Source of the DNA: a virus
Taxonomy: Duplodnaviria; Caudoviricetes
Reading direction: 5' to 3' (one strand)
Virus record (IMG/VR): IMGVR_UViG_3300032038_000011
Location: 64,001-128,000 of that record
DNA length: 64,000 nt
Part shown: piece after piece, positions 1 through 31,000 of the stretch
How positions within the stretch are numbered: the stretch's first letter is position 1
Layout of the letters: each line of letters begins with the position of its first letter
The notes under the pieces: generated by a model
The model's input: the letters and a program-made list of their open reading frames with translations, nothing else
What the model was told of the DNA's origin: nothing
Databases searched by the model: none
Position numbers and translations under genes: made by a program

Positions 1-236
1 TCATTATAAGCGGGGTCGTAAGAATGGGTAAACCTATTGCGATACCAATAAATGGCATAGCCCAACAAACCTTCCCTACGCCAAGTGGGCAAATTGTTAA
101 AGGTAAAACACTTGGGAACACCCCTGACAGGCTTGCCAGACTTGCCGATAAACTGCCCGGTGGTAATATCCCACGCGCCGACCTTCAAAGAGCAATCATA
201 AGCTACGATAAAATTACGTTCCTTAACAAAATTCAT
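1..236 (-). CDS. Hypothetical phage protein, N-terminal part (runs off window)
   Basis: ATG at 236 after GAAAGGGA RBS and its own promoter; open frame MNFVKERNFIVAYD... to the window edge. Confidence 0.7.
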   Translation of the reverse strand, partial: MNFVKERNFIVAYDCSLKVGAWDITTGQFIGKSGKPVRGVPKCFTFNNLPTWRREGLLGYAIYWYRNRFTHSYDPAYN

Positions 237-404
237 TCTTAATCCCTTTCTGGTTTGTGTTGTTTTCCTTCAACTTTGTGAGTATATTATACACCCGATA
301 TGGCTATTTGTCAATGCTTTTTTGTGTTAAGTATATATAAATTACACTATACGTTTAGTCTAATTAACATTCGCTAAAAGAAAAGCGCCCCGAAGGGCGC
401 TGGA

Positions 405-749
405 TTAGGTGCGGCGGGAGTAGGTGTTATTGCCGCCATTATCGGGGCGATGAACCTCAACCTCGTCCTGCCAGAGGTTAAGCATACCATACCGCATCTT
501 GCTTGCGGTGAAGGTGTCGGGCATATCGGCACTGACGGCATCCCAAAGGTCCTTCACGGTCATCGGCTTGTCCCACGCGGCGCAAGCCATCAGGGCATCG
601 TGCGCGGCGTTATACAGTTCAGTATTAGCCCGCGACTTTGCGGTGGTACGCTCCCACTCGGCGTTGACTTCATCACGAAGCACAGACAGGTCAACAGTGT
701 TGTCGCCGTTCAGGTAGTTCTTCATCATCTCAAGAGTAGACTTCTTCAT
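405..749 (-). CDS. Hypothetical protein, possibly winged-helix DNA-binding (114 aa)
   Basis: RBS GAAAGGA, own promoter and terminator; KPMTVKDLW...ASKMRYGM pattern suggests wHTH (inference). Confidence 0.75.
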   Translation of the reverse strand: MKKSTLEMMKNYLNGDNTVDLSVLRDEVNAEWERTTAKSRANTELYNAAHDALMACAAWDKPMTVKDLWDAVSADMPDTFTASKMRYGMLNLWQDEVEVHRPDNGGNNTYSRRT

Positions 750-841
750 AGGGCATTAATTCCTTTCTCGTTTGTAGGGTGTCGTTCCCTTTGATGTATT
801 TATTATAGCACTGATTGGCTATAATGTTAAGTTAAGAGTTC

Positions 842-959
842 GTTAAAGGGGTTCGTGCGTTCCTCAAGGTTTAACCTTGCTTCTCTGTTTAACAGAGTGA
901 CATACTATTGCGACTTTCAACCGCCGCCCCACGGGTCTGTGGCTCAGAACCCCTTTAAC
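842..959 (-). ncRNA. Candidate ~118-nt structured small RNA
   Basis: Perfect promoter (-10 966-971, -35 989-994) puts the start at ~959. 13-bp terminal stem GTTAAAGGGGTTC/GAACCCCTTTAAC, four internal hairpins, no RBS or ORF. Confidence 0.7.
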
Positions 960-1070
960 ATCTTTATTATACCACGATTTCCAAACTTTGTCAAGTTAAG
1001 ATTTCGTGACGCCGTTTTTACGTGGGCTTTCTTATTAAAGTAGCACACCACTACAGGCAGCGGCCCTGTC

Positions 1071-1113
1071 TGGTGAGGGTGGCGGGAATCGAACCCGCGG
1101 TACCTTCGCCCTC
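1071..1113 (-). ncRNA. tRNA 3' fragment / minihelix-like RNA (acceptor + T arm + CCA, no D or anticodon arm)
   Basis: Minus strand GAGGGCG-AAGGTACC-GCGGG-TTCGATT-CCCGC-CACCCTC-A-CCA; own promoter at 1125-1153. Confidence 0.7.
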
Positions 1114-1187
1114 TTGACAGTAACAGTATATCAAAAATTGAACTAAAAGTCAAGTAATTTTTATGTAAACTAAAATGTACGTGCGAT

Positions 1188-1610
1188 TTAATTAACAAAT
1201 AATTTATCAAATGAATAATCCTTAAAATATTTAGAATTATTATTTTGATTATTTAACGGTTCTCTAATTCTTAATCTAATTTGCTTTTTATCTCCAATAT
1301 CTTCTATTGGAACAATTGCGATTAAATCATAAGTTTGATTTACAAAAACGAAATAATCTACCTCTCCAATATAAGTAGATAAGTTTTTATTTGTGGTATG
1401 ATTTGTAGAACTACGAGTATAACAACAAATAGCACCATTTTGTTCTTCATTACAAGTTTTAACTTGTATTCTATTGAATTTACCATTAAATTCTGCTATC
1501 ATATCATAGCGTTCATTATCTCCCCAAGGAATACAAACAGGAATATTATATTTTTGAAATTCATATAGTGCTTTTGCTTCCGATAATTGGCCTTTTGTTT
1601 TAGTATTCAT
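1188..1610 (-). CDS. PD-(D/E)XK homing endonuclease (group I intron-associated / I-Ssp6803I-like family), free-standing
   Basis: MNTKTKGQLSE...PWGDNERYDMI...RIQVKT motif pattern; adjacent to a tRNA. Confidence 0.85.
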   Translation of the reverse strand: MNTKTKGQLSEAKALYEFQKYNIPVCIPWGDNERYDMIAEFNGKFNRIQVKTCNEEQNGAICCYTRSSTNHTTNKNLSTYIGEVDYFVFVNQTYDLIAIVPIEDIGDKKQIRLRIREPLNNQNNNSKYFKDYSFDKLFVN

Positions 1611-1693
1611 ATTATCACTCCTATGATAAATAAAATTAAGGGCTGGCGTAGGAGCGCCTTATCTCATTAGTCGCGAACTAATGCTACCCCTGA

Positions 1694-1768
1694 TGGTGGG
1701 GATAGTGGGAGTCGGACCCACCGTACCGAAATTAAAAGTTTCGTGCCATACCGCTTGGCTATATCCCC
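1694..1768 (-). tRNA. tRNA-Lys(UUU) with encoded CCA
   Basis: GGGGATA/TATCCCC acceptor stem; GCC-AAGCGGTAT-GGC D arm; CGAAA-CTTTTAA-TTTCG anticodon arm; GTGGG-TCCGACT-CCCAC T arm; ACCA end. Confidence 0.88.
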
Positions 1769-1789
1769 ATACCACTTGGCTACACCCTC
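1767..1789 (-). pseudogene. tRNA 5' fragment (acceptor 5' strand + D arm)
   Basis: GAGGGTG-TA-GCCAAGTGGTATGG immediately upstream of tRNA-Lys; GAGGGTG is the exact complement of CACCCTC in the 1071-1113 fragment. Confidence 0.75.
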
Positions 1790-2019
1790 ATAAGTTTTGG
1801 GAGTTCCTTTCCTCTCCCTCAACTGTAATTATTATAGCAGAATTAGAATGAAATGTCAAGTATTGGGATAGTTAAGATTTGGAAAATTAGAAATTACGGG
1901 ATTTCTAATTAAAATGAAATTAACAGAAAAAAGTATTGACAAGGAAATGAAATTCTGCTATAATAATAACTGTCAAGAGGACAAGGAAAAGTCCTAAAAA
2001 CCAGAAAGGATTTCAACTT

Positions 2020-2322
2020 ATGGCTATGACTGCTGCTGAAATGAAGGCTACTGCTCGTCAGGCAACTATCGCGGCTATTATGCCGTCCCTCCAGGAAAAC
2101 AACGCAATTAAGTTTGCGGACGGTTCCTTCGCTATCCTTCAGAATGTTGAAGGTCAGGATATTTGGACGGAAGTAACCGTCAAGTCCAAGGCTTACAAGG
2201 ATACCAAGGTATCCAAGGCGTTCAATCCGCGCGAAGCGGCGCAGGCGTGGGAAGCCGAACGTCAGATTAAGGCAGATAATAAGGCTGCCAAAGAAGCCGA
2301 AAAGGCGGCGAAGAAGGCGTAA
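2020..2322 (+). CDS. Hypothetical protein (100 aa), probable paralogue of 2840-3295
   Basis: Own rightward promoter and GAAAGGA RBS; similar Ala/Lys-rich C-terminal helix and shared leader AAACCAGAAAGGA. Confidence 0.85.
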   Translation: MAMTAAEMKATARQATIAAIMPSLQENNAIKFADGSFAILQNVEGQDIWTEVTVKSKAYKDTKVSKAFNPREAAQAWEAERQIKADNKAAKEAEKAAKKA

Positions 2323-2396
2323 GCCTTCTTCTTTTAATTTATTGTAAATTAGGTTGAACGTATAATATAATTTACATATAGTTAAAATAATAAGGA

Positions 2397-2588
2397 TTAA
2401 ATCCTTATTATCATTCTTTCTTTTTCTTTACTATAACGATAAGATTTTACTTCTTTATATTTAAGTTTGTCAGGAATTTCACTAACTAAACCAACGTATA
2501 AAGCGCGACTGGTGTTAGGGTTCCAAATAATTACACGATTAACAATAACTTTGGTTTGTGCTGCGCGGATTAATCCTGCTACAATCAT
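2397..2588 (-). CDS. Hypothetical protein (63 aa)
   Basis: AAGGAGA RBS; stop/start overlap with the upstream gene. Confidence 0.7.
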   Translation of the reverse strand: MIVAGLIRAAQTKVIVNRVIIWNPNTSRALYVGLVSEIPDKLKYKEVKSYRYSKEKERMIIRI

Positions 2589-2725
2589 TATTTATCTCCT
2601 TTCATAGCTTCACGACAAATCTGCTTCCCTTCTTTACGTTCTTGTTTTTTATTTTTCTTCTTTGCGGGCATCACAGAAGGGCGATAGCCACACCAAGTTT
2701 CACGGTTCTGATTTTTCTTTTCCAT
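2588..2725 (-). CDS. Small basic hypothetical protein (45 aa)
   Basis: GAGAGGGA RBS before MEKKNQ; own promoter. Confidence 0.7.
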   Translation of the reverse strand: MEKKNQNRETWCGYRPSVMPAKKKNKKQERKEGKQICREAMKGDK

Positions 2726-2839
2726 TATATTCCCTCTCTTTCTATAAATAGTATATACTATTTTCTTCAATAAGTCAAGTTAATTATTTGTAATATAGAT
2801 TAAACGTACAGTGTAATTAACATAGAAATAAAGTGACGG

Positions 2840-3295
2840 TTAAACCGTCACTTCGTGGGGCAGGAACTGATTGTTATCGTCTTTTTCTTCTTCTTCAGGG
2901 TCAGGTGCGTGAATCATAGCCTGAAGCCCTTCGGTGTTGAGTTTCTTAATCGTCTTTTTCGCGGCGCGCTTGCGCTCCTTTTCTGCTGCTTCGCGCTCGG
3001 CCTTTTCCTTGCGCTTTGCTGCTTTGTCAGCCTTATCGGCCTTGACAAGTTCCCATTCATCATGGGCTGCGTAACCGTCATAGGCATCATAACCGCCGTC
3101 ACCATTGCGGGAGCCGCGCGGAATAGATACCTTAATCAGCGCAAACTTTTCATTGCCTTCGGCATCGACAACAGGCATAGCGAGTTCGCTTGCGCTAACA
3201 TCCATCACATCAGCGTCGTAGTGTTCAGACAGAGCGGCGGTCAGAACGGCAAGAACATCATTGCGAATCGCGGTTTCCAGTGCTGCTTGTGTCAT
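2840..3295 (-). CDS. Hypothetical protein (151 aa)
   Basis: GAAAGGA RBS, own promoter and terminator hairpin. Confidence 0.85.
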   Translation of the reverse strand: MTQAALETAIRNDVLAVLTAALSEHYDADVMDVSASELAMPVVDAEGNEKFALIKVSIPRGSRNGDGGYDAYDGYAAHDEWELVKADKADKAAKRKEKAEREAAEKERKRAAKKTIKKLNTEGLQAMIHAPDPEEEEKDDNNQFLPHEVTV

Positions 3296-3370
3296 AGCAT
3301 TTCCTTTCTGGTTTAGTGTTGTCCTTCACTTTGTAGGTATATTATAGCAGATTTGAGAGGAGAAGTCAAG

Positions 3371-3439
3371 TTAAATAATTGTTACGATAATTGCGGAAAC
3401 AATCAAAATGTCAACGGCAAGAACCAAATAGATAAACAT
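3371..3439 (-). CDS. 22-aa single-transmembrane micropeptide
   Basis: AAAGGAGA RBS; MFIYLVLAVDILIVSAIIVTII*; dedicated promoter (-35 at 3491-3496). Confidence 0.65.
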   Translation of the reverse strand: MFIYLVLAVDILIVSAIIVTII

Positions 3440-3558
3440 TTTGTTTCTCCTTTCATTTTCTATAAATATTATAGCATAAATTCTGTTGCTTGTCAAGTAA
3501 ATTTTTTGTTAAATACATACGACGTATAATTTAATTAACTTGAAATTAAAAAAGGCGG

Positions 3559-3999
3559 TTATCCCGTCTTTATCATTTGTGAAAGAATTTCAAAAATCTT
3601 TTCCGGTTCATAAGCTCCATTTCCCCACGCTGTGCGGTTTCTTTCTTCATCATCAAAAAGAATCCCGCCGCCTGTTACTGTGAGTTTATTTGTGCCATAA
3701 CGTTCAATTTTAATATAATCAAAATTAACGGAAGGCAAATGTTTTGCTAACCAGTAAAATTTTGCGATACTGATTTTAACCAAAAAATCGTCCGAGCCGT
3801 GTTTAGAACCCCATGAAATAATACCGATTTCATGGCCTTGGGTTTGTAGTTTGTTAAGATAACGAGCAAGCAAACTCATGTTAATAAGAGGTTTTGCCGC
3901 ATTATAAGGCGTGGTATCTTCATTTTGAAGATAATTCAACCAACCTTCAACGCCGTAAAAATCCGCAATAGTTCCATCCATATCCAACCAAATCTTCAT
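3559..3999 (-). CDS. HAD-superfamily 5'(3')-deoxyribonucleotidase-like phosphatase
   Basis: Motif I LDMDGTIADF, conserved K, motif IV ILFDD. Confidence 0.8.
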   Translation of the reverse strand: MKIWLDMDGTIADFYGVEGWLNYLQNEDTTPYNAAKPLINMSLLARYLNKLQTQGHEIGIISWGSKHGSDDFLVKISIAKFYWLAKHLPSVNFDYIKIERYGTNKLTVTGGGILFDDEERNRTAWGNGAYEPEKIFEILSQMIKTG

Positions 4000-4117
4000 A
4001 ACACAAAACCCCTCTCATTTGATGTATTAAGTATAACATATATGGATTAAGAAGTCAAGTTAAATGTTTGTTATTTAGATTGGACGTTTAACCTAATTTA
4101 CATATAATTAAAGTGGA

Positions 4118-4489
4118 TTATTCATCCACTTTAACCCATTCCATTGTGCGTGTATCATATCTAAACAGACCGACCGCGCAACTAAAATCTTCATTATATA
4201 TACATGCGCTGATATTTTCACGAATAAACTCTGTTTCATCATCTGTGAAACTACCATTTCTTCGACAAAAGACACAACAACCATAGGCATCATCAAGCCA
4301 TTTTATCCAATCTTCAACATCAGGAGAAGAGCCAGGAGGAAGAATTTCTTCCATATTTTTATCATAGAAAGAAATTTTATTAGCAATACTTAATGCTAAA
4401 CCATAACCGATATTTTCATACTGTATACACGCATGGTAGTTATCAAATTCTTTATCATCATAAGCATAATACATAGTAACCTCGCGCAT
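4118..4489 (-). CDS. Hypothetical protein (123 aa)
   Basis: AGAGGA RBS, own promoter, bounded by 34-bp sites. Confidence 0.8.
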   Translation of the reverse strand: MREVTMYYAYDDKEFDNYHACIQYENIGYGLALSIANKISFYDKNMEEILPPGSSPDVEDWIKWLDDAYGCCVFCRRNGSFTDDETEFIRENISACIYNEDFSCAVGLFRYDTRTMEWVKVDE

Positions 4490-4613
4490 AATTTATATCC
4501 TCTTTCATTTGATGTATATATTATATGCCATTTAGAATAAAATGTCAAGTTAAAATATTATTATATAAAAGAGACGTATAGTTTAATTAACATTTATATA
4601 ATAAAAAACGCGG

Positions 4614-4793
4614 TTATTGTTCCGCGTTATAGAATACCAGTAAATCAATAGCATTATTGATTTCAGTTATTGCTTTATTAAGACTTCGCTTGGCTTCGGT
4701 TTCGTAATGTCCCGCGTCTTGCGTTATAATATCATCAATAGTCATATCACAATAGTCTCGTGCGCGAATAAGAAGTTCAATATCATATTTCAT
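4614..4793 (-). CDS. Hypothetical protein (59 aa)
   Basis: AAGGAGA RBS before MKYDIEL. Confidence 0.7.
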   Translation of the reverse strand: MKYDIELLIRARDYCDMTIDDIITQDAGHYETEAKRSLNKAITEINNAIDLLVFYNAEQ

Positions 4794-4794
4794 A

Positions 4795-4980
4795 TTATTT
4801 ATTCTCCTTCCATTTTTCATATACTCTTACAAGTTGGTCTGCTGTAGCTAAAAGAGAATAGACATCTATTGCGTCTTGACTATTACCTTCAAAATCACTT
4901 GACAGCTCATTTTCCAGCTGATATAGTGTACGAATAGTAGCTTTCAGCTTTTCCAGCTGTTCAGTAGTAAGTTTCTTCAT
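4795..4980 (-). CDS. Hypothetical helical protein (61 aa)
   Basis: GGAG RBS before MKKLTTE; own promoter. Confidence 0.7.
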   Translation of the reverse strand: MKKLTTEQLEKLKATIRTLYQLENELSSDFEGNSQDAIDVYSLLATADQLVRVYEKWKENK

Positions 4981-5304
4981 ATCCAGCTCCAGCTCCTCTC
5001 TTTTTTCTATATATATTATACCAGCTTCCAGCTCAGAAGTCAAGTTAATAATAGGTTAAGTTCAGCTAAAATTAGGTAGCACTAACAGACCCGATACACG
5101 GGCCGCTTTACTTAATTTTAACAGCATCTTAACCAAAAATCAATCACTCCTTAACACAGTCATAACAATTCACCTTCTTTCCTATAATATTCCACCATTA
5201 TTAATTATACCAAATTTCGCAAGGGTTGTCAAGTTAAATGTTCGTAAATTAGAGTAGCCGGATAGTCTAATTTACATTAGCTTAAAAAAGAATAGGCCAT
5301 TGGC

Positions 5305-5592
5305 CTATTCCCAATCTTCATCAAAATTTAACATTTCCAAATCTTCATCGAAGAAGAGTTCCATGGCCTCTTCAAGTTCCTTAACGCCATCTTCATCAAA
5401 GATGTGGTTAATTCTGTCCATGTCGCGGGCCATGTGGTAAATCATGCGCCATGCGGTCTTAATGTTCTTTTTACGTCCATCTCTGAACCAATAGTCGTCG
5501 GCGTCAAAGTCCCACATGTTGATTTCAAACATGCCATTGTCGTAAATGTAACCATAAACCAAAACGTGGCGAATCTGAATCTGGAAAAACAT
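5305..5592 (-). CDS. Acidic hypothetical protein (95 aa)
   Basis: GAGAGGAG RBS, promoter and terminator; very acidic C-terminus. Confidence 0.8.
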   Translation of the reverse strand: MFFQIQIRHVLVYGYIYDNGMFEINMWDFDADDYWFRDGRKKNIKTAWRMIYHMARDMDRINHIFDEDGVKELEEAMELFFDEDLEMLNFDEDWE

Positions 5593-5755
5593 TGTAAAAT
5601 CTCCTCTCATGTTGTCGTTATTGTTGAACCGTTTTTTATTTTATTATACCACAAAAAAATGATTTGTCAATAGTTTTTCTATGTTAAAATTACGTATATT
5701 AGAATATCCGGATATTCTAATTAACATAAAAATAAAAGAAGGCAGGCGCCTTCTT

Positions 5756-5938
5756 TTAATCCTCATAGGTGTCAGTGCCTGCCTGCCGGATTGCCCACCG
5801 CTTTGCGCCGGCGATAGTTTTGAATCCTTTGCCAAGTCGCCAGCCCCAAGTACCACCTTCACCAACGTGATACTTGCCATCAGGCATCGGGGTGTCATCC
5901 CAAGTATAGTAATGTTCGCGATTGCCGACTGTGTTCAT
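5756..5938 (-). CDS. Hypothetical protein (60 aa), paralogue of 11610-11804
   Basis: AAGGAGGT RBS; shares HYYTxDxxPxxDGKYHVGEG...KTxxGAKxWA. Confidence 0.85.
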   Translation of the reverse strand: MNTVGNREHYYTWDDTPMPDGKYHVGEGGTWGWRLGKGFKTIAGAKRWAIRQAGTDTYED

Positions 5939-6061
5939 GTGAGTTACCTCCTTCATTTGATGATTTATTATAACATGGATAGGGGTATATTGTCAAGTTA
6001 AAAGTGCGTAAATTAGATGATACGTATCTTCTAATTTACATATAGTCAACATAAAAGGGGA

Positions 6062-6280
6062 TTAACCCCTTATATGTTGCGAATTGAAAGCGGCAACAAT
6101 CTCCCGAATTGTGTCGTTTTCGTTAAGAAGCGCCAAAGTACAAAATACAACTTCGGGGTTCTCGATGTAAATGATATACGCGCCCAAAGCGGCGTTAAAG
6201 TCGTTTGTATATTCTACTTTGACTTCTTCTTCTTTGGTGTACATGGTAACAAACTTGGTGGTAATGCTGTACTTTTTCAT
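6062..6280 (-). CDS. Hypothetical protein (72 aa)
   Basis: AAGGGAG RBS; promoter and site-bounded cassette. Confidence 0.8.
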   Translation of the reverse strand: MKKYSITTKFVTMYTKEEEVKVEYTNDFNAALGAYIIYIENPEVVFCTLALLNENDTIREIVAAFNSQHIRG

Positions 6281-6400
6281 GGTATTAACTCCCTTCATTT
6301 GATGATTTATTATAGCATGAATTGACGCAGTTTGTCAAGTTAATTGTGCGTAAATTAGATAGTACGGTTATTCTAATTTACATGGAATTAAAAGAAGGGA

Positions 6401-6625
6401 TTAAATCCCCTCTTTGAAAGTCGTGACTTCGATATACATGAAATTTGCTTCGTTGGTATCGGGGTCACGATAGTAAATAACTGTAACTGTGTCACCATAA
6501 TCAAATCCTTCACACAGGTAGCCACAAATCGAAAGACGATTCATAGCAGCGGCGATAGCATGGTTCATGGTATCGCGGGCGGCGATGATTTCACTGTTCT
6601 CATGGATAACGAAAATGCTCTTCAT
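6401..6625 (-). CDS. Hypothetical protein (74 aa), probable paralogue of 7113-7361
   Basis: AAGGGGGT RBS; similar MxxAIxxA...Y..xxFxYGxxxTxIxY pattern. Confidence 0.8.
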   Translation of the reverse strand: MKSIFVIHENSEIIAARDTMNHAIAAAMNRLSICGYLCEGFDYGDTVTVIYYRDPDTNEANFMYIEVTTFKEGI

Positions 6626-6763
6626 AGGTTTATACCCCCTTCATTTGATGGATATATTATACCATTTTTCAGTGTTAAAAAACAAGCAATTGGAAGTTAA
6701 ACGTTAGTAAATTAGAATCTACGTTTATTCTAATTTACATATACTTAATAAAGAAGTGGAGGA

Positions 6764-6982
6764 TTAATCCTCCACGTAAAATCGCGGGTAGCGACCGACC
6801 TCGCTGTTATTACAGTTATAATAACAAAATTCGTTGTAGAAATTGTTAAAATTGCGGAACATCCAACCGGGTTTCATGTGGACAGCGAATTGCGAATCAG
6901 GACGCATATTCGCGGGTACAATGATGAACGGCTTTTTTTGTTCGTAGAGTTTACGGGCCTGCACTTTGTTAATCTGTTTCAT
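6764..6982 (-). CDS. Hypothetical protein (72 aa)
   Basis: GAGAGGAGG RBS; FYNEFCYYNCNNSEVGRYPRFY C-terminus. Confidence 0.8.
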   Translation of the reverse strand: MKQINKVQARKLYEQKKPFIIVPANMRPDSQFAVHMKPGWMFRNFNNFYNEFCYYNCNNSEVGRYPRFYVED

Positions 6983-7112
6983 GGGATTGCCTCCTCTCAA
7001 TTTCTGTATATATTATAATACATAAAAAGCTATATGTCAAGTTAAACATTTGTAAATTAGACTGGCCGTATAGTCTAATTTACATACAGATAATAAAATG
7101 GGCTTGCGCCCA

Positions 7113-7361
7113 TTAGGTTTCAAGTTCGGCTTCGGTGATAACAATTGTGCCGGTTTCGGTTGTGCTTTCAGAGTACAAGCGCGGGACAAAGACTTTGTAT
7201 TCGATGGTAGTGTAGCCTTCGCCATAGGCGAAGTCAGTTACTTCATAGTTGGCATGGTGCGCGTATTGGATAGCGTTTTTGATGGCGCTGTCCATATCTT
7301 TGCAGATGACAACAACATCGGCCTCGCGGTTATCATAGACGACATACAGGAACTTACTCAT
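7113..7361 (-). CDS. Hypothetical protein (82 aa)
   Basis: AAGGAGGT RBS, promoter, GCAA-loop terminator. Confidence 0.8.
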   Translation of the reverse strand: MSKFLYVVYDNREADVVVICKDMDSAIKNAIQYAHHANYEVTDFAYGEGYTTIEYKVFVPRLYSESTTETGTIVITEAELET

Positions 7362-7949
7362 GGTAGTTACCTCCTTCATTTGATGTCTTATTATACCATT
7401 TTCAATGTTAAGAAGTAAGCATGATATGATTAAACGTTTGTAAATTAGATTCTACGGTTACTCTAATTTACATTGGTATAATAAAAGCCGCGCGGTTAGC
7501 TACTCCGCGCGGTTGGCTCGTTCGCGGTCAGTGCGCCACTTCTGCCGCGGGTCAGTTCACTTACGTTACGCGGGATTATGCTACAACTGCCACGTTGCAC
7601 ATTGTCCCTTGCTCTAATAGGGTGGATTCATTGTCAAGCACCTCAAACACTATTGCAGGACATTTAATGACGATGGAGGAACGGCTGACTACTGCGGTGG
7701 CTCGTTCATTCTTTATCTCCCCTTTCGACAAGTCTATTATAACATGAGATATGGGATGTGTCAAGTTAAACGTTTGTTAATTAGATAATTTGTTTTGGGA
7801 AATGAAATAGGATTTTATTTGTAAATAATATGTTAATTTTGGGAAAAGAAATATAAAATGAAATTGGAAAAAGTTAAAGGAAAGTAAAATAAAATTGACG
7901 TTGAGTGTAATTTACATAATATTAAAATGAAATTGCGGTTTCCCGCAAT

Positions 7950-8258
7950 TTACCATGTACACATTACTTTTAACATTCCATTGTCTATTTTAATTACGGT
8001 CGAAAAACCAAGTTCTTCTAATTCTGATTTTAGACCTATTTTCAAATAATTTTGTGATTCTTCTGAAACAAGTCCCATACACAGCAGATTAAAATCATCG
8101 GCTGCGCTTTGATAGCCGGCATTAGCTGCGGCAAAATTTGCTTCGTTCATTTTATATAATACCGCAGGAACAAAATCGTTTTTAATACGATTGTATTCGG
8201 CAAGACGAGCATCAGAGGAAACCTTGCGAAGAGTAGCGGCATTGTAGATAGGCGTCAT
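7950..8258 (-). CDS. Hypothetical protein (102 aa)
   Basis: AAGGAGA RBS before MTPIYN; own promoter. Confidence 0.8.
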   Translation of the reverse strand: MTPIYNAATLRKVSSDARLAEYNRIKNDFVPAVLYKMNEANFAAANAGYQSAADDFNLLCMGLVSEESQNYLKIGLKSELEELGFSTVIKIDNGMLKVMCTW

Positions 8259-8392
8259 ATTTATAATCTCCTTTGCTTTTCTTGTATATAGTATATCATA
8301 TATATAAAAGGGCGTCAAGTTAAATGATTATTAATTAGACTATACGTTCAATGTAATTTACAGAAAAGCAAAATAAAACGCGGTTGCCCGCG

Positions 8393-8656
8393 TTAAGGTT
8401 TCTTTGTACAAAGAATAACTTTGGAGTAGTGAGTGAGATATGTAATACCGTTCATTGTAAACTGAACGACATCAGATTCGTCAAAGTCGCGCCATGACGT
8501 TACTGTGCCTTCAATAAGTTCGCCGTTGCCGAGTTCAAGAATTGCGTGGGTAAAAGTCTGGGTTGTGTCCCAACCAACTTGGCGATTGCCAACTCGGCAA
8601 GCAGTCAGCGCGAGAGCAAGGGAGAGAATGAGAACCACACAAATAATCTTCTTCAT
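8393..8656 (-). CDS. Putative lipoprotein (87 aa)
   Basis: MKK + hydrophobic stretch + LTAC lipobox. Confidence 0.8.
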   Translation of the reverse strand: MKKIICVVLILSLALALTACRVGNRQVGWDTTQTFTHAILELGNGELIEGTVTSWRDFDESDVVQFTMNGITYLTHYSKVILCTKKP

Positions 8657-8837
8657 TTTGGGATACCGTTCCTTTCTTTTTTCTTGAATTTATTATAGCA
8701 TAATTATTTTGAAATGTCAAGTTAAAAGGTTGTTAAATAGAATTGACGTTTGATGTAATTTACAATTGTTTAACTTGACATTTCGGGATTGCTATGTTAT
8801 AATGATTACAGAAATTAAGAGAGCGAGGTAATTTGAA

Positions 8838-9026
8838 ATGAAAAGAAAGTGCTACGTTGTTGAAATGAACTCCGCGCTGGATGGTCTGTTTGAACAGTTG
8901 GATGATTACGGTTTTGATTATGAATGTGAAGAGCATTGGCCCGCGCCCGGTTATATAGAAATTTACGTGCTGTATTATCCTCATGAGATTCGGGACTTGG
9001 AAAATATTTTCGCGCCGTATGTTTAA
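8838..9026 (+). CDS. Acidic hypothetical protein (62 aa)
   Basis: Rightward promoter with -35 at 8775; GAGGT RBS. Confidence 0.8.
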   Translation: MKRKCYVVEMNSALDGLFEQLDDYGFDYECEEHWPAPGYIEIYVLYYPHEIRDLENIFAPYV

Positions 9027-9106
9027 CATACGGTTTTATTTTGAAATTATGTTAATTAGAGGATACGTAGTATCTAATTTACATTGAATTAAAATTATGG
9101 GATACA

Positions 9107-9241
9107 TCAAAAGATGTATCCCTGCATCATTTCATCAAATTCTGAAAATGAAATGCCGTTTTCGTCGGGGTCAAGAATGTTCGCCTGATAGTCCCAATAA
9201 ATACGCACCTGTTCCTCAGAAGTCAGATTTTCCCACTCCAT
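9107..9241 (-). CDS. Small acidic protein (44 aa)
   Basis: GAGGT RBS before MEWENL; own promoter. Confidence 0.75.
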   Translation of the reverse strand: MEWENLTSEEQVRIYWDYQANILDPDENGISFSEFDEMMQGYIF

Positions 9242-9402
9242 ACGGGATACCTCGCTTTCGTTTGTTTGCAAGATTATTATAGCAAAAATAAAATGAAATG
9301 TCAAGTTAAATGATTATTAATTAGATTATACGTGCGGTCTAATTAACAGGAATTTAAAATAAAATTGCGAAACTTTTTATGTTTCGCAATTTGAAATTGA
9401 AA

Positions 9403-9543
9403 TTAAGGAATTAATATTTCCTTAACATCCCATTTCATTCCCGTGCAATGCGTGCGCCAATTTGCCGCATTTTGTGCCTCTTCGCGCGTGCGATAGTAGG
9501 AAGAACCTTGAAAACCACCACAATAGATTGCATACACTGTCAT
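9403..9543 (-). CDS. Small hypothetical protein (46 aa), not in the ORF track
   Basis: AAGGGGA RBS; MTVYAIYCGGFQGSSYYRTREEAQNAANWRTHCTGMKWDVKEILIP*; own promoter and terminator. Confidence 0.75.
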   Translation of the reverse strand: MTVYAIYCGGFQGSSYYRTREEAQNAANWRTHCTGMKWDVKEILIP

Positions 9544-9777
9544 TTTAGGAAAATCCCCTTTCGTTTGTTTCTGAAATTATTATATCATTTTTGAAATGAA
9601 ATGTCAAGTTATTTTTATGTAAAATAGAACTTACGTTTAATATAATTTACATAAATTTAATTTGGGTTAGTTTTGGGATTGTCTAAATATTGTCATAATA
9701 AAAACTTTAAAAAGGGTTTGATTTTGAAATTAGTTTATGATATAATATATATAGAAAAGCAAGGGAGGTTTTGGGAT

Positions 9778-9957
9778 ATGCGCGCGAAAGACTATAAGAA
9801 AAGGAATAGTTTTTCATATAAAATTAAAATGTGGTTTTATCGGCTGACTTTTCGGGATGTTATGTCTACCAGTAAAATTGTTATTATTTCTATAATAAAT
9901 TTTATAATGGCGGTTTTAGGATTCTTAATCCTCTTTTTTGGCCCGTCATTTCTTTAA
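9778..9957 (+). CDS. Small membrane protein (59 aa)
   Basis: GGGAGGT RBS; C-terminal hydrophobic segment; rightward promoter. Confidence 0.7.
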   Translation: MRAKDYKKRNSFSYKIKMWFYRLTFRDVMSTSKIVIISIINFIMAVLGFLILFFGPSFL

Positions 9958-10055
9958 GAAAATGAAATGAAATTAGGGTGTGAGGTTTCGGGAATGTAAA
10001 TTATATCATACGTATTTTATAATTAACAAAAATAAAATAAAATAAAAGGTTGGAA

Positions 10056-10355
10056 TTACTTCCAACCTTCCATATATCCTGCGTATCGAATCATAACAAT
10101 TTCATCATCGTAAATGGTAGGCGTGTCACGTTCTTCCATTATCGCGGCGACAATATCACCGCAGTCGAAATCTTCGATTCCTTGCCATATCCATTCATTG
10201 CCATTGAAGTCTACGAGAACCATAAAGTTCTGTTCGTAGTTAATTAAGTCAACTACGAAAGCTTGAGGATACTGTTCTGCGCTGGCACAAGCCACAATTC
10301 CCATAAAGATAGCACAAGCAACAACGATACACCAAACAATAACAAACTTCTTCAT
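10056..10355 (-). CDS. Putative secreted/membrane protein (99 aa)
   Basis: AAGGGAG RBS; MKK + signal-peptide-like N-terminus. Confidence 0.8.
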   Translation of the reverse strand: MKKFVIVWCIVVACAIFMGIVACASAEQYPQAFVVDLINYEQNFMVLVDFNGNEWIWQGIEDFDCGDIVAAIMEERDTPTIYDDEIVMIRYAGYMEGWK

Positions 10356-10473
10356 ACTATATACTCCCTTCATTTGATGGTATAAGTATAACATATATAT
10401 AGTATGATGTCAAGTTAAACTACTGTAAATTAGATAATACGTTTACTCTAATTAACATAGAGTTATCGCGGAT

Positions 10474-10713
10474 TTAACCTCCGCGATAATTTGGATGAAC
10501 TCGTTCGTATGCACTAACTTTTCTAAAACTGTTATATTCTTGTTGCGTTATCTCTTTGCCGAATATAACCATTTTAGTGTGCTTAACACTTGGCATTTTT
10601 CGCGCTTTGTCGCAAGCCTCAAGCAAATTATTTGCTTTGAAAACAAACTTAATTTCAGTGCTTCGACCTGTTCCGCAATGTCCACGATGACAAACGACTT
10701 CAAAGTATTTCAT
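10474..10713 (-). CDS. Hypothetical protein (79 aa)
   Basis: AAGGGAG RBS; CHRGHCG motif. Confidence 0.8.
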   Translation of the reverse strand: MKYFEVVCHRGHCGTGRSTEIKFVFKANNLLEACDKARKMPSVKHTKMVIFGKEITQQEYNSFRKVSAYERVHPNYRGG

Positions 10714-10827
10714 GGTTGTTACTCCCTTCTTTTATTCTGGTTATATTATAACATAGTTCTTGACCTTTGTCAAGTTATGTTTATGTTAATTAGGTTGGAC
10801 GTTTAATGTAATTTACATTAGCTTAAT

Positions 10828-11000
10828 TTCCAGTTCCAGCTTTCCAGCTCCATATAAATGTTAAGTTTATGTTAAAGTTTCCAGCTCCAATGTTAATTTT
10901 ATGTTAATTAGAATGCGGCTTCCAGCTCTCAGTTCCAGCTCCCAGCTCGCGGCCGCGCCGGAGCCGAGGAACTTCCAGCTCCACGCAAATTTCCAGCTCC
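10828..11000. repeat. Cluster of ~10 TTCCAGCTC-like short repeats
   Basis: ttccagct(c) recurs through 10828-11000, all in one orientation, below a promoter at 11136-11163. Confidence 0.8.
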
Positions 11001-11307
11001 CCACCGGCACGCCGACCGGAGCCGAGGCAGGCCAAGGGCGCCCGCGCGAACCGAGCAAATTTACGCATAATTCATATTCTCTTAACATAGCTTTAACAAA
11101 CCTCGCTTCTGAGGGCATATTCCCCCATCCTCTATATTATAGCAGATAAATGTTAATTGTCAAGGTAGTTTATGTTAAAAGTATGTGAATTAGATTAAAT
11201 TTAACAAAGTTAAGCTGACGTAAATTAGACTGCCCGGATAGTCTAATTTACACAGGCTTAATGTTAGTGGTGACTAACTACTATGTTAAAAAAAAGAAAA
11301 GAGGGCG

Positions 11308-13486: not shown

Positions 13487-13515
13487 TTGACAAATCTAAT
13501 AAAATATGATAAAAT
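13487..13515 (+). promoter_or_regulatory. Rightward sigma-A promoter (extended -10)
   Basis: TTGACA-N17-TAAAAT with TG upstream of the -10 box. Confidence 0.8.
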
Positions 13516-13552: not shown

Positions 13553-14896
13553 ATGCAATATATGAAAAAGAAATACTCACTCGACTACTCTATTGAGCGA
13601 GATACCGACCGATTACACGCCGTTGAAGAAATTTTAGATACTTTGGATACCAAACCTTCCAATTCTGAATTAGAGCAAATGGCTTCCTATATTCTATATG
13701 GTAAGGATGAAGAAGGTAAAAACGCCGTACAAAGGGGCGAAACCACCGACTCCAATAAACGCTACAATAGCTTTCAACGTGCCGCGGACAAAGTCCAATC
13801 GCTTGATGAAATTTTAGAAAACCCATTAAACGACCAACAAGCCCTTCAATCGCTTGAAACCCGCTATATTTATACAAAGAAAAAACCAGCTATACATCGT
13901 CCCAAATACGATAAAAAAACTGGTGAATTAATCGATCCTGGCGATTCCGAAATTCCAGGTATGCAAGACCTTTGGGATTGTATTGACCGCCTAGATCGCA
14001 TCGTAGCAGTAAACGAAGGTAAAATTCCACCCGATGAAAATACCCAAATTTTTAAAGACTCATATCGTCTTTACCAATTAAAGCATTCCCTTATTGATAT
14101 AAGACGCCACCAATATTATCTTAAAGATGCCTACAAGCCCACCCTCCATTTTCTCGCGCTAACCCCTCCCAAAGCTCAAACTTATAATTGGGACGAAGAT
14201 TCCTATTACTGGATGCCCCTCGACAAATGGCAAGAACGCGTTAATAATGCCCTTCTACATACAATAAGTAAAAATTTAGAAGACTATGAAACACGTGAAA
14301 ATCCATACACAAAAGAAATTGAAGTAAAATGGGTAGTGCGTAAACACACATTTGATTGGGAAAACCCATCCCACATTAAAGCATTAATAAACAATTATTC
14401 AGCTATTTATATGGAGCTTAACGAAAAATTAGATAGTTGGGGGCGCACCCTTATTTATGACTTTGACCGCTATTTTGATATGTCTGGGTTTAGTGAAGCG
14501 CGCGAATACATACTAACAAGAAAAATAGACCATGCTTCTTACACCGAAATTCGAGAAGAACTTCAAGAAAAATTTGGTCTAAAATACAATGAAAACCACA
14601 TTTGTACTATTCTCGCAAAAGAAATTCCAGAAAAGATGGCGGCAACAGCTACTAAACATCGAATGCTTTTAACAACGCCAATAACAGAACGCAAACGCTG
14701 TTTTACTTGCAAGAAGTGGTTGCCGCGAAACAACTATTTTTTCGCTACCAATAATAGCCGCAAAGATAAATTTGCTTCTAATTGTAAAGAATGCGAAAAA
14801 CAAAAAAGAATAGCAAGAGGAGGTCAGTCCGCGTATGACAGACGAAATAAAGACGCGAAGATGCTTGAAGTGCAGGCAGGAGAAACCAATTCATGA
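13553..14896 (+). CDS. Phage protein with HTH-like segment and C-terminal zinc finger (447 aa)
   Basis: SYTEIREELQEKFGLKYNENHI helix pattern; CFTC...CKEC. Confidence 0.75.
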   Translation: MQYMKKKYSLDYSIERDTDRLHAVEEILDTLDTKPSNSELEQMASYILYGKDEEGKNAVQRGETTDSNKRYNSFQRAADKVQSLDEILENPLNDQQALQSLETRYIYTKKKPAIHRPKYDKKTGELIDPGDSEIPGMQDLWDCIDRLDRIVAVNEGKIPPDENTQIFKDSYRLYQLKHSLIDIRRHQYYLKDAYKPTLHFLALTPPKAQTYNWDEDSYYWMPLDKWQERVNNALLHTISKNLEDYETRENPYTKEIEVKWVVRKHTFDWENPSHIKALINNYSAIYMELNEKLDSWGRTLIYDFDRYFDMSGFSEAREYILTRKIDHASYTEIREELQEKFGLKYNENHICTILAKEIPEKMAATATKHRMLLTTPITERKRCFTCKKWLPRNNYFFATNNSRKDKFASNCKECEKQKRIARGGQSAYDRRNKDAKMLEVQAGETNS

Positions 14897-27112: not shown

Positions 27113-28003
27113 GTGGTGAATCAGATGCTTGATCAGTATTTTGGCATTAAAGAACTTTCAGAAGTTGTTTTAAAAGCCCACGACCCTATGCAATTTGGTT
27201 CAAGATACCTTGAAGCGGGAGAGCCCGTATTATATTTTGAAAAAGTAAATATGGCTGTACTAAATGAACGACAATCTACAATTATGGCACGAGGAGGTTG
27301 GTCCAATATGCCTCGTGTTATCTGGGAGGATCGTTCAGAAGTACAATTCTCCCTTACTGAAGGTGTTATGTCTTCAATTAGTATGGGAATTTTATTAAGT
27401 GCTTCTGTTTCAGAAGCTAAGCAAAACAAAGAATCTCTTTTAGTACCTAAAAGAGAAGGTCCATTTGAATTAGAAGATGGATGTATTTATATAACACATC
27501 AACCTGTGTTATATCCTGAGAAAAAAGTTTTTATTTATCAATACGAGCGAGGAGTCGCTCAGAAAAAAGTTTTTGGGCAATTAGATCCAGAAAATAATAA
27601 ATATAATCCTTTTTTAGACGAAACTGAAATATGTATTAAAGTGTTTGAAGATAAAGAAAGGAAAAAAGAAGCGGACGCCACAAAAGAATATATTGTGGAT
27701 TATTATTATGAGTATAATGATGAAGCATTGCTTTATACAATACAAAAAGAAAGATTTAATGGATTGTTCACTCTTGAGGGTAAGTTTTACTCCAAGGATG
27801 AAAACGATGGCTTAAATTATACAAATTTGATTTATATGCCAAAAGTAAGAGTCGTGAGTGATATAAACTTACGCTTGGGAGAAAGGGCTGATCCAACTAC
27901 GTCCGTATTTAATATTATTGGATTACCAGAAAACGTAGGCGGTAATAGAAAGGGTATGATTTTGGAGATTACGCGTTTAAGCGAAGATATAGACGCTGAA
28001 TGA
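27113..28003 (+). CDS. Tail-tube paralogue (minor tail protein)
   Basis: FGIKE..V, PVLYF, ARGGW..P..IWE and ADP..F align with 26007-27056. Confidence 0.7.
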   Translation: MVNQMLDQYFGIKELSEVVLKAHDPMQFGSRYLEAGEPVLYFEKVNMAVLNERQSTIMARGGWSNMPRVIWEDRSEVQFSLTEGVMSSISMGILLSASVSEAKQNKESLLVPKREGPFELEDGCIYITHQPVLYPEKKVFIYQYERGVAQKKVFGQLDPENNKYNPFLDETEICIKVFEDKERKKEADATKEYIVDYYYEYNDEALLYTIQKERFNGLFTLEGKFYSKDENDGLNYTNLIYMPKVRVVSDINLRLGERADPTTSVFNIIGLPENVGGNRKGMILEITRLSEDIDAE

Positions 28004-28038
28004 GCCACTTCCTAAGTGTAGGGAAGTGGCTCTTTTTT
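28003..28038 (+). terminator. Intrinsic terminator immediately upstream of the tape measure gene
   Basis: gagccacttccta-agtg-tagggaagtggctc followed by tttttt. Confidence 0.85.
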
Positions 28039-28065
28039 ATTTGGTGCAAAAGGAGAGTGAAAAGT

Positions 28066-31000
28066 ATGTCTAATGAAATAGGCAGTTTTGTAGTTAGTAT
28101 AAAAGCTCAAATAGAAGGTTATCAAGAGCAAATTAACGCTATAAAAGCAAAATTAGTTGAAATTGGCAAAGATACGGATATTGGAAAAGAAATAGCGAAA
28201 TCTTTAAAATTAGCTGAGTCACAAGTAGAACGCCTTGGGAAAACCATGGATAAACGTATTTCTTCAGAATCTCAAATTACGGCATTAACGGATAATTTAC
28301 AAAATATTAGTCGTTTAATAATGGATATTGGAGATTCTTTTGGGAAAGTTACTTGGAATGATTTAAATGTTGATGGTTTAAGAGATAAAATTCAAAGTGC
28401 TAAGTCTGAAATTGATAATTTAACAAACTCAATGCAAGAAAATGTTTCTAAAGGTTTTGCAGAAGCCTTAGCTTCATCTGCAGAAATGAGAGATGTTTTT
28501 AAGTCTTTAAAAATTGACCCGGCTCAAATGGGCGTAGAAGAAGTTACTGAAAAATTAAGACTTAGTTTAATTCAAGCAACTTCAATTTTAGAAAATTATA
28601 AAGCTGAATTAGATAAAATTATTCCAAAAGCAGAAGAAGCTACTCAAAAAATGAACGCTATTGAGATAGATAAAACTAAAGCAGAGCAAGCAAAAGCTAG
28701 TATTAATGACATTTTTAAAAATTTGCAAGTTGTTTCTAAAGTAGACACTAATTCTGCAGTTGGTGAACTTTATACAGAAATTGTAGGAAAATGTGATGAG
28801 TTATATTATGATTTAGATCAAAAAGGAAAAGGAATAGTAGATAAAATTAAAGAGCTTAATTTTAAAATGTTAAATGAAACAGATCCAACAAAATTTAAAG
28901 AATATTTAACTCAAATAGATGAAAGTTTTAAACAGTTAAATGGTAAAGGTTTAACTGCGAACGTTGATGGTTTTGGCACTCGCTTAGAAAGTATTTTTAA
29001 ATCTATTATGTCAGTAGATAGTCATAAATTTGTTGAAGGTATCGAGCAAGTTAGAACTGCCTTAGAAGGATTATTTGCTGATAATAAAAATTTTAATTTA
29101 TCTCCAGAAGACGCAAAAAGTTTTATTGAAAAAGTTTTAAATATTGAAGCAACAAAAGAATCAATAAAAGCTAAAAGAGAAGAGGTCTCAGCACTTATAA
29201 AAAGTTATTTAACTGGAGTTTCTCAAGATTATAAAGAAGCTTCTAAAGTGGCAACTGGGTTAAATAATTCAAAAAATACTGCTCAGAAAAAATATGATGA
29301 AGCGCAAGCAAAAAGTGAAGCAATTAAAACTGCTGAAACAAAATATTTAGCTGAAATAAAAGCATTAGAAAATAAAAATGCTGAATTAAAAGCTCAATTA
29401 GATAATGCAGTAAAAAGATTAGAAGCTTTAGAAAAAGAATCTGAGTCTCGTAAAAATGGAAAATCTCCAATGGGAGATTTTGGTAGAAAACAAAAGCAAA
29501 CTGCCGCTCAGTCTTTAAACGATGCTGCAAATGCTGCTGGAAAATATAGTGCTCAATTAGAACAAGTAAAAGCGCGCGAACAAGCTATTGGTAATATACA
29601 ATCTTTTGTTCAAAGATGGTTTAGTGTTTATGCTGCGGCACGTTTAGTATCTAATGCGTTTAAATCCATGAAAACAAATTTACAAGATTTAGACGATATT
29701 ATGACTCAAATTTCTATAGTTACTGATAAAACACAAGGTGATTTATGGAAACAAATGCCACAGTATTCTGATATGGCAAAGCAATATGCTTCTTCTATTA
29801 AAGGCGTTTATGAAGTTTCTCAGCTATACTATCAGCAAGGTTTAGGTCAAAATGATGTTATGGCTCTTACTGAGCAAACATTAAAAATGGCTAAGATTTC
29901 TGGTTTAGAATATGCAACAGCAACTGACTATATGACGAATGCTGTTCGTTCTTTCAAAATGGAAATGTCTGATGCGCAGACTGTTGTTGATGTATATTCT
30001 GCTATTGCCGCGAGTTCTGCAACTAATACTGCGGAATTAGCTACCGCAATGAGTAAAACTGCTTCATCTGCGCAAGCTGTTGGTTCTAGTTTCGAGAATA
30101 CTTCTGCAATGATGGCAGTTATGATTGAAGCTACTCGTGAATCTGCAGAAAATATTGGTTCTGCTATGAAATCTATCATTTCTCGTTATGGTGAAATGAC
30201 AAAGAGTCCTTCTAAGTTAATTGACAGCGAAGGTGAAGCAATGAGCCTTAATAAGGTTGATACTGCTTTACAATCTGTTGGAATTTCTATTCACGATGCG
30301 CAAGGTCAATTTAGAGATTTTGATGATGTTATTACTGAATTATCAGGTAGTTGGGATAAAATTGATAAAAATACTCAACGTTACATTGCTACTGTAATGG
30401 CTGGTAATAGACAACAGTCTCGTTTCTTAGCCTTGGTTTCTAATGGAGAACGTTTAGAAGAATTAACTGAAAAAGCTGCGAATGCAGAAGATACAGCTAC
30501 TTTACAAGTATTAAAAACTATGGACTCTATTTCTGCAAAAGTACAACAATTGCAGACTAGTTTACAAGGTTTATATACAGAGAGTGGATTTGAAGATTTA
30601 TATAAAGGTATATTAGATGGGTTAACTAGAATTATAGATACTTTTAATAATATGCCTAAAATGTTTAATTCTATTCCAGTTACTGCTATAGCAACTTTTG
30701 CTCAATTATTTGTTAATATTGGTAGTTTAATTGGCTCTGCTGTTTCTGCTTGGAAAGCTAAGTGGTCTACTACTAGGACTGATTTAGAAAATGCTATTTC
30801 AAGTGGCACAGCGAATGGAGTTCAAGCAGCTCAGTTAAATGCTAATAGTTTAGTTAGAATGTTTGAGAGTGCTGCAAATAGAATTAAAAATGTATTAACT
30901 GGAGCAATTGCGCAAGGAACTTCTCCAACCTCTAATGAATTAATTACAACTAATACAAAATATCAGCCAATTGAAGTTAATAAAAAATGGAGTGAAGAAA

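Follow-up and report, generated by a model that had tools for sequence, protein, structure and literature searches.

What does a palindrome do when it stands at almost every boundary between the small early genes of a phage? The question arises from a 64,000-nucleotide stretch of viral DNA (Duplodnaviria; Caudoviricetes), referred to here as the window, which comprises bases 64001–128000 of the 136,935-bp IMG/VR record IMGVR_UViG_3300032038_000011 (G000; completeness estimated at about 80%). The record encodes a terminase-like protein as well as portal and tail proteins, and the phage is siphovirus-like. Its portal protein shares about 30% identity with its counterparts in large siphoviruses of Enterococcus, Lactococcus and Bacillus and in the gut phage Phass-1, and the host of this lineage is probably a member of the Bacillota.

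The palindromes are found in an 18-kb gene array at genome positions 56963–75252 (window −7037 to 11252), of which positions 1–11252 lie in the window; the array continues beyond its left edge. It consists of small ORFan genes, mostly on the minus strand and without a function recognisable by Pfam or PHROG comparison, and it is placed just upstream of a sigma-factor-like gene and of the packaging and structural module. A typical unit has its own consensus promoter of the sigma-A/sigma-70 type and an intrinsic terminator. An initial annotation of the window, made from its letters alone, had interpreted the palindromes as crossover sites of an integron-like cassette-shuffling system. Below we argue, with moderate confidence, for another reading: the palindrome would be a boundary or operator element, the core of a symmetric duplex site of about 52 bp for a putative protein that controls the early promoters, and cassette shuffling of the kind described for promoter(early) stem-loops (PeSLs) would be a by-product.

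The boundary palindrome and its promoters

With the pattern from the initial annotation, 22 matches with up to 3 mismatches were found in the window and none in 100 shuffled versions of it. A looser scan (up to 5 mismatches) returned 25 copies with starts from 336 to 11219, so that all the palindromes described were recovered and the chance expectation is nil. All 25 have CG at positions 17–18. When sites were located by their arms alone, leaving the centre unconstrained, the CG was present in 181 of 181 sites from six related phage records (G000 and five others) and in 529 of 529 sites on metagenome contigs. The invariance that had been claimed for the window thus extends to the relatives. 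The base beside the CG varies (ACGT, CCGT, ACGG or CCGG) in a lineage-dependent manner, G005 having mostly CCGG and the other records ACGT.

Scanning of the full genome and of relatives placed the motif precisely. The record contains 34 copies, all at 56963–75252 and zero elsewhere. The five other IMG/VR records, two of which are complete genomes of 184 and 181 kb, hold 9–43 copies each, and the motif also occurs in 54 metagenome stretches; the non-redundant set comprises 601 sites. Within the genomes of 137–184 kb, all copies are confined to one array. The exact-arm pattern gave only 3 isolated matches in 596 Gb of bacterial genomes, which makes a host regulon unlikely. Phass-1, the nearest named relative as judged by similarity of the portal protein and of promoters, has no such palindrome and different early promoters, and a near-identity search of a phage collection with the array returned no match. 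Hence, the motif is limited to the early array of one phage clade. In Phass-1 itself (L022, OQ749652.1 108888–132934) a distinct, clade-specific promoter embellishment was noted. Avoidance of restriction at ACGT was also considered and found unsupported, as this tetranucleotide is not depleted in the genome (observed/expected 1.04).

Alignment of the flanks and a symmetrised logo of the 34 sites in G000 showed that the 34-bp core that had been annotated is real, but that the conserved motif extends to a TTAA on each side. The whole element of about 52 bp reads TTAA-N5-TGTWAATTAGA-N4-MCGK-N4-TCTAATTWACA-N5-TTAA and resolves into five conserved blocks, namely TTAA, GTWAATTAnA, CG, the mirrored arm and TTAA. 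At position 4/31 each side has A or T independently of the other. The variable positions 12–15 and 20–23 are complementary in just 9–17 of the 34 sites, approximately the expectation from base composition, and they show no covariation; therefore, the dyad consists of two conserved half-sites and does not reflect selection for base pairing. Folded as single strands, the sites have energies between −10 and −1.9 kcal/mol, and some do no better than shuffles. Together with the position of the sites between terminator and promoter, these erratic energies and the lack of covariation led us to reject a function as RNA or hairpin. In 35 orthologous site pairs from genomes that are about 75–93% identical, the conserved blocks were altered in 0–2 pairs and spacer positions in 6–12. 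The five contact blocks, about one helical turn apart, are under purifying selection, a pattern that would suit a sequence-specific protein site and not a structural one.

The element keeps a strict distance from the promoters. The region contains 18 perfect (12/12) TTGACA-N16-18-TATAAT promoters, mostly with an extended −10 TG, besides many intrinsic terminators. Of 133 promoter sides in five of the six records, 107 have their −35 box 10 nt away from the edge of the palindrome and 17 have it at 21–22 nt. The 601 non-redundant sites, with 523 promoter sides, show the same two classes: 10 nt in 432 (83%) and 21–22 nt in 54 (10%), with a single case at 9 nt and none at 11 nt. The two classes differ by one helical turn and, assuming the usual −35/−10 geometry, place the centre of the site at about −62.5 or −73.5. 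The outer TTAA is immediately adjacent to the −35 box; in the 21-nt class it remains with the palindrome. Terminator stems start 9–17 nt from the site on its opposite side, with no preferred spacing. Over the 523 promoter sides the element thus has the fixed, helically phased position expected of an operator array, and it also has the other attributes of one: a two-fold symmetric, sequence-specific motif, maintained by purifying selection without structural covariation. This phase-locking to the −35 box is not predicted by the recombination idea.

Across the six records, the junctions fall into promoter/terminator (105), divergent promoters (9) and convergent terminators (11), the remainder being partial. 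Seven near-consensus promoters of the array have no full palindrome but keep WACA-N5-TTAAC, one of them retaining the proximal arm only. The initial wording that almost every unit is bounded by a palindrome therefore holds, where "every" would not. Outside the array, promoters of the class TTGACT-17-TATAAT have no palindrome element. Sixteen exact copies of this class were found at genome positions 1368–56884, 121617 and 130219, with unrelated upstream sequences; they suggest a second promoter class, which may belong to a different temporal class.

From these observations we propose that a sequence-specific oligomeric protein, a dimer or a dimer of dimers, binds the 52-bp duplex, one site marking each transcription-unit boundary of an early gene array of the host-takeover type. 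The protein would probably be phage-encoded, since the motif is absent from bacterial genomes. Once bound, it would control the very strong consensus early promoters, and shut-off or modulation appears more likely than activation because these promoters already have a perfect consensus. The binding, the phage origin of the protein and the direction of regulation are inferred from sequence. In addition, the bound protein probably acts as a boundary or roadblock between units. This further role is proposed because the promoterless convergent sites are equally well conserved; such sites are retained even in the distant relatives G001 and G005.

Several observations weigh against this operator reading. 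Sites without an adjacent promoter (about 22%) match the 52-bp consensus as well as the others do (2.51 versus 2.60 mismatches, p=0.2). A purely promoter-linked operator is insufficient to account for this, and the element would appear to have a role independent of the neighbouring promoter. At one-sided promoters the proximal half is slightly less consensus-like than the distal half (1.52 versus 1.08 mismatches), a bias that contact with RNA polymerase as the sole constraint would not readily explain. Finally, the array proteins gave no Pfam or PHROG match to a helix-turn-helix (HTH) or other DNA-binding family, no homologue of phi29 p4 or of HU/TF1 was found, and no HTH, ribbon-helix-helix, p4-like or HU-like protein was recognised; most early proteins are ORFans.

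Both comparisons of consensus match also bear on the idea of a protein-independent promoter architecture, in which the palindromes would be back-to-back, UP-like, curved AT-rich elements for the alpha subunit of the host RNA polymerase, spread by duplication of promoter modules. The AT-rich arms do lie at about −56 to −46, TTAAC abuts the −35 box, the palindrome-less array promoters retain WACA-N5-TTAAC, and the spacing tracks the helical repeat. However, an invariant CG and fully conserved G/C positions misfit degenerate UP elements, the slightly better conservation at one-sided promoters falls on the distal arm and distal TTAA, promoterless sites are no less conserved, and the motif was not seen ahead of promoters in bacterial genomes. 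We regard this explanation as unlikely.

A selfish extragenic palindrome of the repetitive extragenic palindromic (REP) or miniature inverted-repeat transposable element (MITE) type, colonising intergenic spacers, would likewise be present in many copies and adjoin terminators. It would not be expected to occur exactly once at each boundary with a constant spacing to the −35 box, nor to be missing from the remainder of genomes of 137–184 kb; no Y1 (RAYT-type) or other transposase was found, and the stems do not covary. We consider such an origin highly improbable.

As to the protein that may bind the element, a weak Trp_repressor-like match was rejected as it falls within a GIY-YIG homing endonuclease. 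A basic early protein of 79 amino acids (window 10474–10713, minus strand) is 75–100% identical across all related phages; its resemblance to RNA polymerase epsilon (RpoY) in the ESM atlas (0.86) is a lead only, with no Pfam support, and this assignment was not adopted. A family of paralogous, clade-conserved early proteins is encoded at window 2020–2322 (plus strand), window 2840–3295 (minus strand) and genome 61374–61733 (minus strand). Their C-termini are rich in Lys, Ala and Glu and resemble histone tails, and these proteins could be candidate DNA binders.

Cassette turnover and the position of breakpoints

Cassette maps of G000, G002, G003 and G004 show a collinear backbone with differences at the level of whole units, which may be missing, inserted, replaced or relocated; cassette 60, for instance, has different locations in G002 and G004. 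Rearrangement is more extensive in G001, a more distant relative. Between close relatives, which are about 85–95% identical, the differences terminate in junction modules. Non-collinearity among relatives, which the initial annotation had predicted, is thus observed. Its proposal that cassettes are gained, lost or inverted is upheld as regards presence, absence, replacement and translocation of whole units; orientation, in contrast, is stable. The genes of the three plus-strand cassettes are inverted in the same way in all relatives, and the sole inverted gene (window 4118–4489) was found in the distant G001. As comparison of orientation at the protein level is noisy, with antisense open reading frames included, only clusters of real genes were used for this statement.

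These maps are the ground on which dedicated site-specific recombination must be judged, i.e. crossover at the central CG in the manner of an integron or shufflon, by a recombinase that is encoded elsewhere, supplied by the host or of an unrecognised family. Much of the layout is what it predicts. There is one site per junction whatever the orientation of the genes, and this includes convergent junctions without a promoter, whose sites are well conserved; the central CG is palindromic and never varies; and relatives differ by whole cassettes. Each inverted single-gene cassette lies between a divergent and a convergent site, as inversion between sites would leave it. This last arrangement is, however, expected from any exchange within a symmetric element and does not require a dedicated enzyme, and an orientation that is fixed across deep divergence argues against an active inversion system.

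In three-way alignments of deletion and insertion junctions the whole palindrome goes with the left unit in some cases, with the right unit in others, and in others again matches neither. In 31 one-sided pairs, divergence was equal for the half-core adjoining the conserved flank and for the far one (mismatch 0.43 versus 0.45, as compared to 0.17 for sites with both flanks conserved and 0.56 for random site pairs). Change-point likelihoods for 37 one-sided pairs excluded the centre in 20, and these 20 breaks lay to the left of the palindrome (5), in the near half (9), in the far half (2) or beyond the palindrome (4). Single assignments are uncertain, as the genomes compared are at most about 95% identical and spacers evolve fast.

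Pure indels were absent among pairs that are at least 96% identical; lowering the cut-off to 93% yielded 10 events, 7 of them independent. Only one of the seven sharply mapped events is compatible with exchange at the CG, namely L036/L058 at positions 16–21. The L051/L065 indel lies at positions 27–36 in the right arm, that of L042/L068 maps to the promoter, and those of L042/L060 and G000/L054 map to repeated leader and ribosome-binding-site sequence. In L068 a 365-bp deletion has both ends outside palindromes and has left two intact sites 29 bp apart. The seventh event is the 663-bp homing-type insertion of G000 in a tRNA gene, described below. "Empty" junctions with two full palindromes 29–34 bp apart were seen at L068:915–1010 and G004:7239–7340. 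The breakpoints are thus scattered over arms, promoters and leaders, contrary to the crossover at the central CG that had been put forward.

Nor was an enzyme for such a crossover recognised. The serine or tyrosine recombinase for which the initial annotation had proposed a search was looked for in the rest of the genome and in the relatives: neither Resolvase (PF00239) nor Phage_integrase (PF00589) gave a match at E≤1 in the six records (G000 and G001–G005, two of them 100% complete), and Y1_Tnp (PF01797) and the DEDD domain of IS110 (PF01548) are absent from G000 and from the complete G001 and G005. A Pfam survey of the approximately 119 proteins of G000 revealed a Sak4-like AAA_24 ATPase, a RecJ-like nuclease, DnaB and GIY-YIG endonucleases; no site-specific recombinase was among them. 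Adding the strict spacing of 10 or 21–22 nt from the −35 box, for which recombination at the CG offers no reason, we judge this explanation to be quite improbable.

Targeting by some other DNA-processing enzyme was also weighed, either a type II topoisomerase or gyrase with strong sites here, which would relieve supercoiling between heavily transcribed units, or an enzyme that nicks or cleaves the DNA site-specifically. The long symmetric site with its central 4-bp palindrome (ACGT or CCGG) might be read in this way, and so might the presence of sites at boundaries that include convergent ones, where positive supercoils would accumulate. No topoisomerase genes turned up in the same Pfam survey, however, the exact abutment to the −35 box is left unexplained, and the only PD-(D/E)XK nuclease of the array is missing from close relatives that retain the sites. 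Such a target is very unlikely in our estimation.

We therefore return to the operator reading, under which cassettes would be gained, lost and replaced by recombination at short repeats, i.e. at the palindrome arms, the TTAAC-TTGACA promoter and the leader with its ribosome-binding site. Junction modules share exact runs with a median of 11 bp and a maximum of 26 bp, sufficient for rare short-homology exchange, and the palindrome arms are merely among the longest of these runs. Shuffling of cassettes would then be a by-product of the motif and not its purpose. Alternatively, a dedicated cassette-exchange machine might recognise the 52-bp dyad and cut in or near the site, although not strictly at the CG; this would be a recombinase or nuclease of an unrecognised family, encoded by an early ORFan or by the host. 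We give this little credence. If it were true, the array would be a phage analogue of the integron for self-expressing host-takeover genes.

Sites and neighbouring genes in the window

In the following, sites are given as window positions of the 34-bp core, with no strand assigned, and promoter distances are from the site edge to the −35 box. The commonest arrangement, a left promoter at 10 nt and a terminator on the right, is found at 2789–2822, 3507–3540 (4 mismatches), 4069–4102, 4559–4592 (5 mismatches), 5243–5276 (CCGG centre), 6007–6040, 6349–6382, 7051–7084 (perfect), 8329–8362, 9315–9348 and 10424–10457 (perfect). The left promoter is at 21 nt for 336–369 and at 22 nt for 5693–5726 (CCGG centre), both with a right terminator. 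The site at 10784–10817 has a left promoter at 10 nt, and the last site of the array, 11219–11252 (CCGG centre), has one at 55 nt. At 6706–6739 the left promoter is weak and atypical only, with a terminator to the right.

The sites at 1881 and 8731, annotated as lying between divergent promoters, were correctly described: 1881–1914 stands between 12/12 consensus promoters 21 nt from each edge and 8731–8764 between 12/12 promoters 10 nt from each edge. For 9618–9651, which had been placed in the same class, one promoter is adjacent (left, 10 nt) and the weaker rightward one is 66 nt off. The promoterless convergent sites were likewise correctly identified, 2343–2376 and 9050–9083 (perfect) lying between two convergent terminators and 9995–10028 at a convergent junction. 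Two further sites have no such arrangement, 7439–7472 (perfect) with no promoter above threshold and 7883–7916 (4 mismatches) with a right terminator and no adjacent promoter.

The remaining site, 1164–1197 (3 mismatches, left promoter at 10 nt), is located inside the 663-bp segment mentioned above (window 1104–1766). This segment stands where a resident tRNA-Lys gene, intact in G004, would have its 19-nt anticodon arm. Its cargo consists of a promoter, the palindrome at 1164, a gene for a PD-(D/E)XK endonuclease of the PDDEXK_5 family (1188–1610, minus strand; E=4e-29) and a second, different tRNA-Lys(UUU) at 1694–1768. The segment resembles a homing-type element that carries a replacement tRNA of its own.

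Directly past the array, the gene at 13553–14896 (plus strand) has its own consensus-like promoter at 13487, without a palindrome. It encodes a protein of 447 amino acids that matches a PHROG annotated as sigma factor (E=1e-20), and its C-terminal part resembles zinc-ribbon and endonuclease VII-like families. Between the array and this gene, the segment 11300–13500 has a G+C content of 44–53%, as against about 32% for the phage. Its minus-strand open reading frames (83, 64, 151 and 190 amino acids) have no Pfam or PHROG match, no Rfam family was found there at E≤1, and its conservation in G004 is poor. Further downstream, 28000–45987 (plus strand) is a single open reading frame of 5,995 amino acids, in which a PhageMin_Tail (tape-measure) domain at residues 591–799 is all that was recognised. 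If it is taken as the tape measure, the protein would be exceptionally long.

Comparison with known systems

Early ORFan arrays are where lytic phages keep their tools for host takeover and counter-defence. To our knowledge, the regulation and turnover of such arrays are poorly understood outside the T4-type phages. In the latter, PeSLs, repeated motifs that combine a terminator with a strong sigma-70-like early promoter, flank ORFans in hyperplastic regions (PMC2839356, PMC4122927). They have been described as comprising an AT-rich upstream region, a promoter and a stem-loop in variable positions (PMC2839356, PMC4122927), and homologous recombination between the motifs was proposed to drive indels and replacements (Arbiol et al. 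2010, PMC2839356; Comeau et al. 2014, PMC4122927). The array analysed here shares the repeated composite of early promoter and terminator stem-loop flanking ORFans, as well as indels and replacements between close relatives that end in the repeated motifs. It differs in the long, sequence-conserved dyad with an invariant centre, which has not been reported for PeSLs, and in that this 52-bp symmetric element keeps a fixed −35 phase and is present even at promoterless junctions of a siphovirus-like phage.

Phage phi29 offers a precedent for the operator side of the comparison. There, a dimer of the small early protein p4 bends DNA and turns early promoters off (PMC1904284, PMC3100819), its sites reading 5′-AACTTTTT-15 bp-AAAATGTT-3′ (PMC1904284, PMC3100819). 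In both cases long inverted repeats, with AT-rich arms about 23–24 bp apart from centre to centre, lie upstream of or overlap sigma-A promoters. The differences are in number, a handful of sites in phi29 versus 34–43 here, and in the invariant central CG and outer TTAA blocks of a site that is here predicted from sequence and has no p4 homologue to match.

The putative sites also recall the stoperators of mycobacteriophage L5 and cluster A, in which a bound repressor is said to block passing transcription. Dozens of copies in intergenic spacers are common to both, and the stoperators provide a precedent for roadblock sites. They are reportedly 13 bp long, asymmetric, orientation-dependent and spread genome-wide, and serve the lysogenic repressor, whereas the element described here is 52 bp long, symmetric, phase-locked to promoters and restricted to the early array.

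The resemblance to integrons and shufflons lies in small gene units that are arrayed and have imperfect palindromes at their boundaries. Integron cassettes are promoterless and expressed from a common Pc, and recognition of attC depends on a folded strand whose sequence is little conserved; integrons require an adjacent tyrosine integrase, and shufflons flip often. In the present array most units have their own TTGACA-17-TATAAT promoter and terminator, it is sequence and not structure that is conserved, and no IntI-type tyrosine recombinase is present. Unlike in serine invertase systems (Hin/Gin, shufflon), no catalytic domain of a serine recombinase was found, exchange at the central dinucleotide is not supported, and orientation is stable in relatives. 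REP/RAYT systems differ in their Y1 HUH transposase (PF01797) and in stem covariation, neither of which is seen here.

In the literature searched, no description was found of a long conserved dyad that is phase-locked to early promoters and stands at every unit boundary. The clade provides a clean case, one long symmetric element with an invariant CG at essentially every unit boundary in more than 700 copies across relatives, and it shows that an array can come to resemble an integron in the absence of a site-specific recombinase. If a protein binds the element, it would be a global regulator or insulator of the early region with a well-defined operator. The comparative data extend modular shuffling of the PeSL type from T4-like myoviruses to a siphovirus-like lineage, probably with a Bacillota host. 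In functional terms, the array would be most like a combination of PeSL cassettes with a multi-copy operator system.

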